This document shows, piece after piece, positions 24,001-27,000 of a stretch of 64,000 nucleotides of DNA. The position numbers are program-made. How positions within the stretch are numbered: position 1 is the first letter of the stretch; the number at the start of each line of letters is the position of its first letter. The DNA is taken from positions 576,001 to 640,000 of the forward strand of contig CAWCLO010000004.1 of NCBI GenBank assembly GCA_963796455.1. The letters run 5' to 3'. The stretch comes from Candidatus Sulfomarinibacteraceae bacterium. Its GTDB lineage: Bacteria; Acidobacteriota; Thermoanaerobaculia; Thermoanaerobaculales; Sulfomarinibacteraceae.

Positions 24001-27000
24001 AGTGGTGAGACGTGGCACTGGCGTGCCAACCGTTCAATCGTCACAAGATCCGAAGCAAAGTCATGGAATTGTGCCCCTCACCCATGATGAGGGTGCGCCG
24101 CTTTGACGACGGGCTACAGACCAAGAGCCATCGCCAGGGCGATCAAGGCCATTTGTATCACGAACAGAATTCCGGCCAGAGGTAGAAACCACTTCCACCA
24201 CTTTTGGATTGGAATGCCACCGAGGGCACAGATGATCACACAGCCGCATGTGGGCCAGACCAGGTTGGAAAGCCCGTCACCGAACTGAAAGGCCAGAACT
24301 GCAACCTGGCGGCTCACTCCGAGCATGTCGGCGAGCGGCGCCATGATCGGCATCGTTGCGGCCGCCTGCCCACTGCCCGATGGAATAAAGAAATTCAGCA
24401 CTGTTTGAGCCACCAGCATGGTCTGGGCCGACACCACTGAAGGGAGGCCCTTCAAGCTGTTCGACAAGGCGAAGATGATCGTGTCTTTGATCTGGGCGTC
24501 CTCCATGACGACGACGATCGCCTTGGCGACACCCGTCAGAAGACCGCCCCAGACGATGGTCTTGACCCCGACCATGAATTCGTCGACCCAACGGTTGGGA
24601 GACCAGCCGGCAATGCCGGCGGCGATGATGGACATGATGATGAACAACCCGGCCAGTTCCCCGTAACCCCACCCCAGTTTCATCATCCCGTACATCAGGA
24701 AACCGAGGGTTGCCAGGACGGTGATGATGATCAATACGGCTTTCGTGTCCATCCTGTACTGCTCGAGGTCTTCCTTTTTGAGCGCATGGATGGACTCTTG
24801 TCCAAAGACCACGGAAAGGCGAGGGTTTCTTTGAGTCCTCTTTCCGTAGACGATGACGTACGCCGAACAGGCGAAGATGAAGCACACCAGGGCGAAGACG
24901 CGAAAACCGGTGGCCGAATAGATGGGAACCGCTGCGATGGATTGGGCGACAGCAACTGTATAGGGATTGAAGGTGGCTCCCATGAACCCGACGTACATGC
25001 CCAGGGCGATGATCGAAAAACCATACATCGCGTCATAGCCCATGGCGACACCCAGCCCGACCATCAGTGGAATGAAACCGTAGAACTCGCTCAACATCCC
25101 GAACATCGAGCTCCCGAGGGCAAAGACCGACATCAGAATCGGCACCAACACTACGTCCTTGTTGCCCATCTTCCGAAGTACCGTGCCGATCCCGGCATGG
25201 AAGGCCCCTGTCTTGACGAGAATGCCGAATGTGCCCGCACACGTGAAGATCACGAAGATGATATCCGCCGCATCGACGCAGCCGGTATAGAGAGACTTGA
25301 AATAGGCGAGGAAACCCGTCGGGTTGGACTCCGACTCGTCCAGATAATGGAAAGTACCGTCGATGGCGATCTTCTTCATTCTGCCGTTGACGTCCACCTC
25401 TTCATAATCGTAGCTTCCCGGTGGAATCACCCAGGTCAGGGCCGCCATGATCAACACGATGACGGCCACGATAATGTACGTGTCGGGCATGGCGAGTTTT
25501 CGTTTTTTGGTGGGGGCTGTGTTCTCGGGAGAGGTGCCCTCGTTCTCTGATTCCTCGTTCACCGCGGCCTCCGACAATGAATAAGGAAAGGTTTTTTCCT
25601 TTCCTGGTACCGGTCACCTTAGCAGGGTGACACCCGTGCTGCGCCCAGCATTCATAGCGGTGGGGCTGAATCCGGGAATTGATTCCTCAGGGTTGGAACG
25701 CGGCCTGGATCATATCGTAGGGACCGCTGCTGCCATCCGGTTGGTAATCCACCAGCACCACCGAGTGCAGCTTGTTCCAATCGACGGTCATGCCGGACAG
25801 ATCCACCACCAGGTTGAAAGTGTCGGTGGCGCCGTCGGCCAACGAAGCAATGCTGTCCCAGGAAGCCTCACGGACGTAGCGATCGGTCACCCTGGCAATA
25901 CCGTCCGGAGAATCCTCGAAGGCAATGGCGTGCACCTTGGCGCGGTTTGCGGTCGACAGAGTCACTCCGGTTTTGTTGGTGACCTGGATCGTGAATTCGA
26001 AGGTGTCGTCGACTCGCTGTCTTTGCACCGTGATCGCACCTTCAGGCGCGCGGGCGAGGGCGGTCTCGACGAGCGCGCGGTAGTCCGTGCTGTAGTCGGT
26101 GGGCCCCATCGACCACAGATTTCCGCTGTCGAGAATGATCAGGGGAAAAGCGTAACTCGAACCCGGAATGGCGTAATAGACCCTCGAAAGGCGGTCGCCT
26201 CGCGAGTCGTAATAGTAGTTCTCGAGAAACACAATCGGCTGCTGCGTGTAGTCCGAGGAGATATGGTCGACCACCGGACCGGCGGCCTGGCAGTGGCCTC
26301 AGCCGGGGTTGTAAAAACCCTCGAAGACCACAAATCGGGTCGGCTGCTCCCAGGGTGTGGTTGCCCCGCTTTCGAAGCCATCGCTGAAAATGGCGTTGAT
26401 GCCGGCGGGCACAGGCCCCACGGCAAGCATGGCCGCGAGCAGAATAGGCGCGATTCGAAGAAAAGACGGCATCAGCGTCATCCTGCGAGGCCCGCTCGGT
26501 AATTCGGAAGATATTCTGGTCTGACTAACTACAGTGTTGATGGAAGTCATATCTCAATTCTAGTTGATGGATCGACACTGTCTGTGACGGGGATCAGCCC
26601 CGACTTCGAAATCTGGAGGGCGGGGAGGGGTGCCAAGTATCGCGATGTCAGCCGTGGGCATTCTTTCTGGTCGTTCCGACAGCGACGCATTCGGCGAAAC
26701 AAATGCCGGTTTTGAACGTACTAAAATTTTAGTAGCGCGTGGGCGGGACCTTCTCGAGGGTGCTCAAACGGAGGTGTTGATGAAGTATTGCGCCGGCCTC
26801 ATTGTCGGGATCGCTGCGCTGTCCTTCGGGTACGCGACGGCCGGCCAACCGGCAATTGTCATCTACGTCGCCAACGAAGGTTTTTTGATCGAGGTGGGCT
26901 CTCGAAAAATCCTGATCGATGCCATCTTCGATGACCAATCGATTACATACGCCCACGTTCCGGACGAAGAGACGCTCAACCTGATGAAGGCTTCAAAGGA

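Follow-up and report, generated by a model that had tools for sequence, protein, structure and literature searches.

The window, by which we mean the whole 64,000-nucleotide stretch of DNA analysed from a Candidatus Sulfomarinibacteraceae bacterium, carries on its minus strand a gene that we believe encodes an exported selenoprotein. The features of the locus are the following.

25687..26472, minus strand: predicted selenoprotein gene, 261 aa, from an ATG at 26472 to a TGA stop at 25689-25687
26481..26484, minus strand: Shine-Dalgarno-like AGGA, 8 nt 5' of the ATG, putative in its role
26404..26472, minus strand: probable cleavable signal peptide, residues 1-23, read by eye from the translation
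26350..26391, minus strand: 'IFSDGFESG..W' tag, residues 28-41, recognised by regular-expression recurrence in the source genome
26050..26340, minus strand: thioredoxin-fold domain, residues 45-141, from the structure model and invariant columns
26299..26301, minus strand: in-frame UGA as putative selenocysteine U58, from TGA, TGC or GGC at this codon in 30 loci
26269..26287, minus strand: predicted bacterial SECIS hairpin, 8-bp stem and 3-nt loop, from folding and comparison
25690..26049, minus strand: Ig-like beta-sandwich, residues 142-261, from the structure model, paired as in HBP35 and DUF1223
25627..26502, plus strand: antisense shadow ORF of 291 aa from an ORF scan, not taken as a gene

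The minus-strand frame 26472-25687 contains only one internal TGA, at codon 58 (26301-26299), and readthrough sets that codon in the context FEGFYNPG-U-GHC; the 261-aa frame with U at residue 58 that had been described in an earlier note on this DNA is thus reproduced. Along the protein the order is leader (residues 1-23), tag (28-41), RFVVFEGFYNPG-U58-GHC and then approximately 200 residues. Translation might instead begin at another ATG of the same frame, at 26481. The leader has a hydrophobic core and a PVPA end without a lipobox Cys, and the N-termini of the homologous loci L002-L004 are alike. The tag of the window protein is covered by no Pfam or NCBIfam model. Its DGFE motif gives 32 more regular-expression matches in the source genome, 24 of them no more than 25 aa from the stop, and is a short motif of exported proteins of this genome with a mostly C-terminal position. 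In the window the gene is flanked by a YfcC-like transporter on one side and a divergent metallo-beta-lactamase-fold gene on the other. Across loci, neighbours are shared only at the level of the genus or as domains fused to the family itself, and there is no operon; clustering of the homologous loci gave no substrate hints from the gene neighbourhood. A promoter and terminator scan returned two promoter-like sites (0.4 expected) and two terminator-like sites (1.3 expected).

The codon itself is the first piece of evidence for selenocysteine. At the position of codon 58, the 30 order-level loci have TGA (24), TGC (5) or GGC (1), and in all 30 this codon is the first position of the motif FExF-x4-[U/C/G]xxC; the FExF flank and the second Cys are invariant in 29 aligned rows, an alignment that leaves out the frameshifted L027. 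The Sec/Cys pairing at exactly one codon that had been claimed for the family therefore holds. So do its order-wide counts, since a six-frame match is present in 69 of the 119 Thermoanaerobaculales genomes and, by hand count, 43 of the best 60 rows have one TGA and 17 have none.

The second piece is the hairpin, which had not been modelled previously. It lies 19 nt 3' of the UGA and has an 8-bp stem, the 3-nt loop GUC and an energy of -12.9 kcal/mol. As given in section 5 of PMC13188914, a bacterial SECIS has a stem of 4-16 bp, a loop of 3-9 nt with G in the first two loop positions, a location 16-37 nt from the UGA and an MFE of at most -7.5, and the window hairpin agrees with the consensus on four of four criteria. 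On its own it is no more stable than dinucleotide shuffles (z -0.07 to 0.33), so the case for a SECIS is a comparative one. Among the 24 TGA loci 97.9% of stem cells are paired, against 12-73% in slid controls, and two-sided changes occur at three of the eight stem pairs. At third codon positions unconstrained by the search pattern, 50 distinct copies, which are kin and hence not independent, have GCC before the loop in 50 cases and GGT in the loop in 47 (GGG in the other three), compared with 43% and 13%, respectively, in the rest of the same genes. Their mean hairpin energy is -13.1, as opposed to -8.0 +/- 0.4 for 200 synonymous re-encodings, and GGT also stands at the loop codon in 12 of 15 additional TGA copies found by profile alone. 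In the source genome, a hairpin with eight of eight pairs in the same register follows only nine of 150,128 TGA triplets. The Cys or Gly forms L008, L016, L023 and L024 retain GCC-GGT and 6-8 pairs; the hairpin is thus partly a record of protein sequence or ancestry, and we read its presence in these four forms as a relic of recent Sec loss. Given the Sec/Cys codon, a hairpin of the SECIS type and the constraint on its silent sites, there is strong support for the claim of a secreted, thioredoxin-like UxxC selenoprotein that annotation had missed.

A quite different account of the locus would make the TGA a real stop, so that the gene is either dead or divided into two ORFs, one for a secreted peptide of 57 codons and one for a 195-aa protein started at GTG; it might also have UGA stand for Trp or Gly, or take the antisense 291-aa ORF as the gene. 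There is a GTG start at 26274, where gene callers begin 100 of the best 150 library matches, but a protein split at the TGA would, in the model, be cut within its thioredoxin fold after strand 1, and a real stop sits badly with a TGA that recurs at the catalytic codon in two phyla, with both flanking frames intact and the hairpin silent sites constrained. Forms with GxxC exist, as recoding to Gly would have it. However, TGA is the main stop in the source genome, where it ends 779 of 1167 long ORFs and the selenoprotein gene itself, so this genome does not read TGA generally as Trp or Gly, and there is no Trp at the residue-58 site in any of 136 rows. The antisense frame is open across the domain in 21 of the 30 homologous loci; as it is broken by a stop in the other nine, we rejected it as a gene. 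We hold all of these readings to be extremely unlikely, and the comparison of sequences argues strongly that the TGA at codon 58 is a Sec codon.

The source genome appears equipped to decode it: selA, selB, selD and tRNA-Sec are each above cut-off, as the earlier note had stated. The SelD motif of this genome reads Cys. Among the carriers tested, a selA match is present in 21 of 22 genomes of one set and in 19 of 20 of the other. As it is also found in 110 of the 119 genomes of the order (92%) and in 348 of the 401 genomes of the class of G515 (87%, a tally that includes the unpublished genomes G877 and G920), this co-occurrence is consistent with Sec decoding and does not discriminate. No selA match was obtained in seven TGA-carrying draft genomes (G008, G092, G097, G101, G104, G524 and G849). 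The only TGA within a formate-dehydrogenase-like match of the source genome looks like an ordinary stop, so that neither this match nor SelD provides a second, known selenoprotein in the genome.

The remainder of the protein had been described as some 200 aa with no family. That no Pfam or NCBIfam model reaches its cut-off on the window protein is correct, and the sub-threshold scores were reproduced (Thioredoxin 17.9 of 23.5 bits, DUF11 18 of 24.6 and pdi_dom 19.4 of 107); the absence of a family is not, since both the fold and the profile assign all of the domain to the Omp28/HBP35-DUF1223 superfamily. The structure model, which spans residues 45-261 (pLDDT 96.8, pTM 0.92), comprises a thioredoxin fold followed by an Ig-like sandwich. 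In the model and alignment U58-G-H-C61 opens helix 1 and an invariant Pro110 lies just before strand 3, which is the usual position of the cis-Pro of the thioredoxin fold. Over the whole module the best structure is HBP35 of Porphyromonas gingivalis (5y1a; Z 17.9, rmsd 3.0, 203 aligned residues, 10-14% identity). The second is AGR_C_4864 (2axo; Z 14.8, rmsd 3.4, 188 aligned residues, 16% identity), which we take to be a DUF1223 protein. All remaining structures have Z of at most 11.8 with about 100 residues aligned or fewer, and Foldseek concurs; residues 1-97 of the model alone give Z of about 10-11.6 against thioredoxins, and a PDB sequence search with the window protein retrieved essentially thioredoxin N-termini only. 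Comparison of the clade profile with one built from eight Omp28-like domains, three of which pass the PF11551 cut-off, gave an hhalign probability of 97.2 (E 3e-11, 176 columns) and placed U58 opposite the leading Cys of the CxxC in those domains. Single models see little of this. DUF1223 matches 8 of 29 members weakly (best E 2.9e-4) and leaves the window protein unmatched (cut-off 30.7 bits), NF033782 (Omp28) matches three of 29 weakly (best E 0.042), and PF11551 matches none of the 29 at E<=0.1 and nothing in the source genome, but control genomes are equally without a match. At the level of fold, as modelled and as aligned by profile, the domain is a member of the Omp28/HBP35-DUF1223 superfamily.

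Within that superfamily the window protein differs from its known relatives in several respects. HBP35/Omp28 (PG0616; PF11551, NF033782) is likewise exported and has a CxxC where the window protein has UxxC, with Cys in place of Sec. HBP35 also has a conserved C-terminal domain by which it is attached to the surface (PMC2907840), and the window protein ends with its Ig-like domain. With DUF1223 (PF06764) the window protein shares the two-domain architecture and falls below the cut-off of the model; DUF1223 has no Sec form in a table of 119 families. The generic UxxC thioredoxin-like selenoproteins (PF00085, SaoT NF040730, DsbG-like NF041057 and HUIPC NF047660) have in common with it a UxxC at the start of helix 1 and a canonical SECIS, whereas the window clade adds the Ig-like domain and modular surface architectures. 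NF040730, NF041057 and NF047660 gave no match to clade members, and PF00085 is sub-threshold.

The closest comparison is with NF045500, the 'Omp28-related selenoprotein', which shares the superfamily by model name, UxxC, a thioredoxin-like fold and Sec/Cys pairs. It corresponds to the row 'hypothetical protein GOS_C', UxxC, in Table 1 of PMC13188914; GOS_C was originally described from metagenomes of the sea, where it counted 74 Sec and 312 Cys sequences and was given a thioredoxin-like fold (PMC2398784). The window protein has the UxxC in a thioredoxin-like fold by which GOS_C was described. NF045500, with a cut-off of 200 bits over 377 positions (the window module has 217 aa), nevertheless matches none of 29 clade members at E<=0.1, none of a further nine at E<=0.01 and nothing at the locus in the source genome; it reaches the outgroup L044 at 46 of 200 bits, and no sequence attains the cut-off in the 5 + 121 genomes searched. 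We conclude that the clade is a separate, uncatalogued branch outside NF045500, PF11551 and PF06764, a separation drawn from model scores with no true NF045500 member in the alignment. The previous description as a new family is accordingly right as to a branch that lacks a catalogue entry (0 of 38 match NF045500) and overstated in that the Omp28/HBP35 fold and GOS_C were already known.

Table 1 of PMC13188914, in which 119 families of prokaryotic selenoproteins were catalogued in 2026, mentions Omp28 and DUF1223 nowhere by name. A search for literature text that pairs selenoprotein or selenocysteine with Omp28, Omp28-related, HBP35 or DUF1223 found none, a weak negative given that NF045500 is printed only as GOS_C. 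The clade is not named in the available portions of the BSepDB paper (PMC13326102) and the deep-Sep paper (PMC12013277); BSepDB may include some members that are filed simply as thioredoxin-like proteins.

The family had been thought to be confined to Thermoanaerobaculales, which proved incorrect. When 401 genomes of the phylum were searched by profile, TGA forms turned up in G394 and G475, neither of which belongs to the order. A scan of GTDB species genomes with a degenerate DNA pattern, which demands TGA and the second Cys and so misses UxxS forms, returned 55 loci, of which 53, overlapping the earlier locus sets, are true by profile with TGA at the site; they are labelled Acidobacteriota (34), Chloroflexota (17), 'bacterium' (1) and 'delta proteobacterium' (1). 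The other two, L097 and L102, were discarded as chance hits on the profile check. In the class of G515, a genome that has a locus labelled Anaerolineae, the 401 genomes gave 25 matches, spread over 19 genomes, and 20 of these matches have one TGA; they were found without the TGA pattern and include tandem paralogues and UxxS forms. Separately, in the genome of the Zixibacteria-labelled L102 we observed three sub-threshold Omp28-like genes with one TGA (44-62 bits to NF045500), and others, L161 and L169, in further genomes of its phylum. All five inspected genes read UxxC, two with clear 8-bp hairpins, so that Sec use in the superfamily is broader than catalogued.

In a library of 50% representatives, 524, 353 and 237 proteins match at E<=1e-3, 1e-10 and 1e-30, respectively. 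The best 150 of these matches divide into 100 that start just after the Sec site, 49 that are full length without Sec and one that is otherwise truncated, so that in this library the mis-calling said to affect all 18 database homologues is common and not universal. By regular expression the full-length forms are CxxC (29), GxxC (10), SxxC (2) and unmatched (8). The 100 late-starting proteins probably have a TGA upstream; by eye, P0093 and P0118 correspond to what follows the UGA in L040 and L111. Where members have been given a name in their sources, it is 'hypothetical', 'thiol-disulfide isomerase/thioredoxin' or 'BACON domain-containing'.

Across 136 domain rows, a biased sample whose counts cannot separate gain from loss, the motif is UxxC in 68, CxxC in 38 (two of them outgroup), GxxC in 12, CxxS in five, UxxS in four and something else in nine. 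Sec and non-Sec rows interleave, and a FastTree of these rows calls for no fewer than 22 changes. In a tree of 52 rows (42 subsampled from the 136 domains and 10 Omp28-like rows), a long stem branch with support 100/99 separates the 37 core rows from all others, the Omp28-like rows included. Within exported proteins the module occurs alone, with a DGFE tag, or fused to BACON, fn3, LRR, GH8 or CAP-like domains, and the protein often ends in a short arginine-rich or YLPL-type tail, which is presumably an export or anchoring tag.

What, then, does the protein do? HBP35 reduces insulin, an activity lost when both active-site Cys are changed to Ser, and binds hemin through residues 135-344 in a manner that survives C48S/C51S (PMC2907840). 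The second of these properties, being independent of the CxxC, opens the reading that the window protein is a true selenoprotein whose main job is surface ligand binding or scavenging (heme, metal or adhesion), with the Sec site secondary. The fusions listed above would suit such a role, as would the GxxC, SxxC, CxxS, UxxS and Cys-less relatives. We consider it unlikely, given that most members retain U/C-x-x-C and the Pro of the thioredoxin fold and that UGA and SECIS have been kept across two phyla, which implies selection on selenium chemistry. That chemistry might alternatively be peroxidase-like, in a surface selenoenzyme that removes peroxide or oxidants mainly by the selenol alone and is not a dithiol reductase; L107, L110, L112 and L130, with UxxS, keep the TGA without a resolving Cys. 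Yet the resolving Cys is retained in 68 of 72 Sec rows, and in structure the protein comes nearest to HBP35 and thioredoxins rather than to peroxidases, which in our judgement makes this alternative very improbable.

We favour, as the probable reading, an exported selenol-disulfide oxidoreductase of the Omp28/HBP35-DUF1223 superfamily, on a branch separate from NF045500. The relatives with GxxC, SxxC or no Cys, in which the scaffold persists without the nucleophile, count against it. In the model we propose, SelB would bind the hairpin just 3' of the UGA and so place selenocysteine at residue 58, as the sequence signature suggests, and the signal peptide would export the protein. Outside the cytoplasmic membrane, Sec58 would attack substrate disulfides or oxidised thiols and Cys61 would resolve the mixed selenenylsulfide, so that the protein would act as a thiol-disulfide oxidoreductase in the manner of its homolog HBP35. 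The source genome encodes one DsbD transmembrane domain, and this DsbD is a candidate source of electrons. The Ig-like domain, together with the short tags and extra surface domains of relatives, probably serves envelope placement and substrate choice. The UGA, the SECIS, the Sec machinery, the fold and the motif position are what the in silico analysis itself shows; that Sec is inserted, that the protein is exported and that it carries out dithiol-type redox chemistry, in which Sec58 is the nucleophile and Cys61 the resolving residue, are predictions drawn from these and from homology.

In conclusion, the locus almost certainly holds a mis-annotated, well-supported selenoprotein, a member, as judged from its sequence relatives, of a new branch, spread over at least two phyla, of a superfamily with a known Sec family. 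The surprise is limited by the chemistry, since no kind is commoner among bacterial selenoproteins than a UxxC in the thioredoxin fold. The finding adds to the bacterial selenoproteome an abundant uncatalogued branch (353 clusters at 50% identity, E<=1e-10), and adds Acidobacteriota, Chloroflexota and, as a side result, the phylum to which a Zixibacteria-labelled genome belongs to the range of Sec in the Omp28/HBP35 superfamily, beside marine GOS_C. Two thirds of the best 150 library proteins are called without active site and signal peptide. A new model for the clade is needed in annotation pipelines. Furthermore, the interleaved UxxC, CxxC, UxxS and GxxC forms constitute a natural series for asking what an exported oxidoreductase gains from Sec. 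A broader proposal, which we regard as rather unlikely, is that Sec is widespread in the superfamily, well outside its single catalogued family, with UGA at one and the same catalytic site in the Acidobacteriota/Chloroflexota clade, the deeper L120 of the Anaerolineae class and Omp28-like proteins of the phylum of G932, and that these make up a large and so far unrecognised class of selenoenzymes on the cell surface of anaerobes from sediment and soil. If this were true, the UGA could double as a selenium switch, with termination leaving the N-terminal tag or domain only and dropping the redox module together with the C-terminal anchor, and the natural U, C, S and G variants would allow a direct test of the benefit of Sec outside the cytoplasm.

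Forms of the thioredoxin-fold and Ig-like module with GxxC or SxxC at the active site (L024, L041, L050 and the library protein P0023) lie nested among the Sec forms, and the codon at the Sec site of L050 is GGA. Since TGA differs by a single base from GGA and from TCA, this suggests that Sec was lost through point mutation.

The module also occurs in tandem paralogue pairs (L116, L118, L119, L089, L074, L065 and L080), in several of which TGA is present in both copies. At other loci (L005-L010, L012, L015-L017, L021 and L023) it is joined, N- or C-terminally, to an unnamed domain of approximately 240 aa of the YVPAAAH...WRTDL type, for which P0004, from the 50%-representative library, was checked without a match in Pfam or NCBIfam.

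Further features of the window are as follows:

15688-18837, minus strand: 1049-aa ORF
20788-21645, plus strand: 285-aa protein with two Cys-rich clusters
27762-28601, minus strand: 279-aa ORF
23055-24008, 26350-26391 and 30839-32005: stretches with a short F.DGFESG...W tag

The 285-aa protein, which is probably exported, and the 279-aa ORF matched nothing in Pfam or NCBIfam. By eye, the 1049-aa ORF appears to combine Ser/Thr kinase, formylglycine-enzyme-like and hydrolase domains. The tag stands at the end of many exported proteins of G000, the genome of the window, or sometimes after the signal peptide instead; genome-wide, 24 of 32 regex matches lie near a stop. No Pfam or NCBIfam model was seen for the tag, which may serve secretion or anchoring.

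UxxC was also found in Omp28-like exported proteins of G932 (L137, L141 and L144), the genome with the Zixibacteria-labelled locus L102, and of its phylum (L161 and L169). These proteins score 44-62 bits against NF045500, the Omp28-related selenoprotein model, well under its cut-off of 200 bits. In L141 and L144 there is a hairpin of 8 bp whose loop reads AGUU. Together the five proteins apparently represent a further, uncatalogued Sec branch.

The deep-branching Anaerolineae-class member, with the active site YTT-U-GPC, has a membrane-protein gene directly upstream:

L120:1444-3615: UxxC member and upstream gene

The 449-aa membrane protein, which carries a CxxC motif, had no Pfam match at E 0.01 and a weak ArsG match. 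By its motifs it seems CcdA/DsbD-like, and it is possibly an electron donor.
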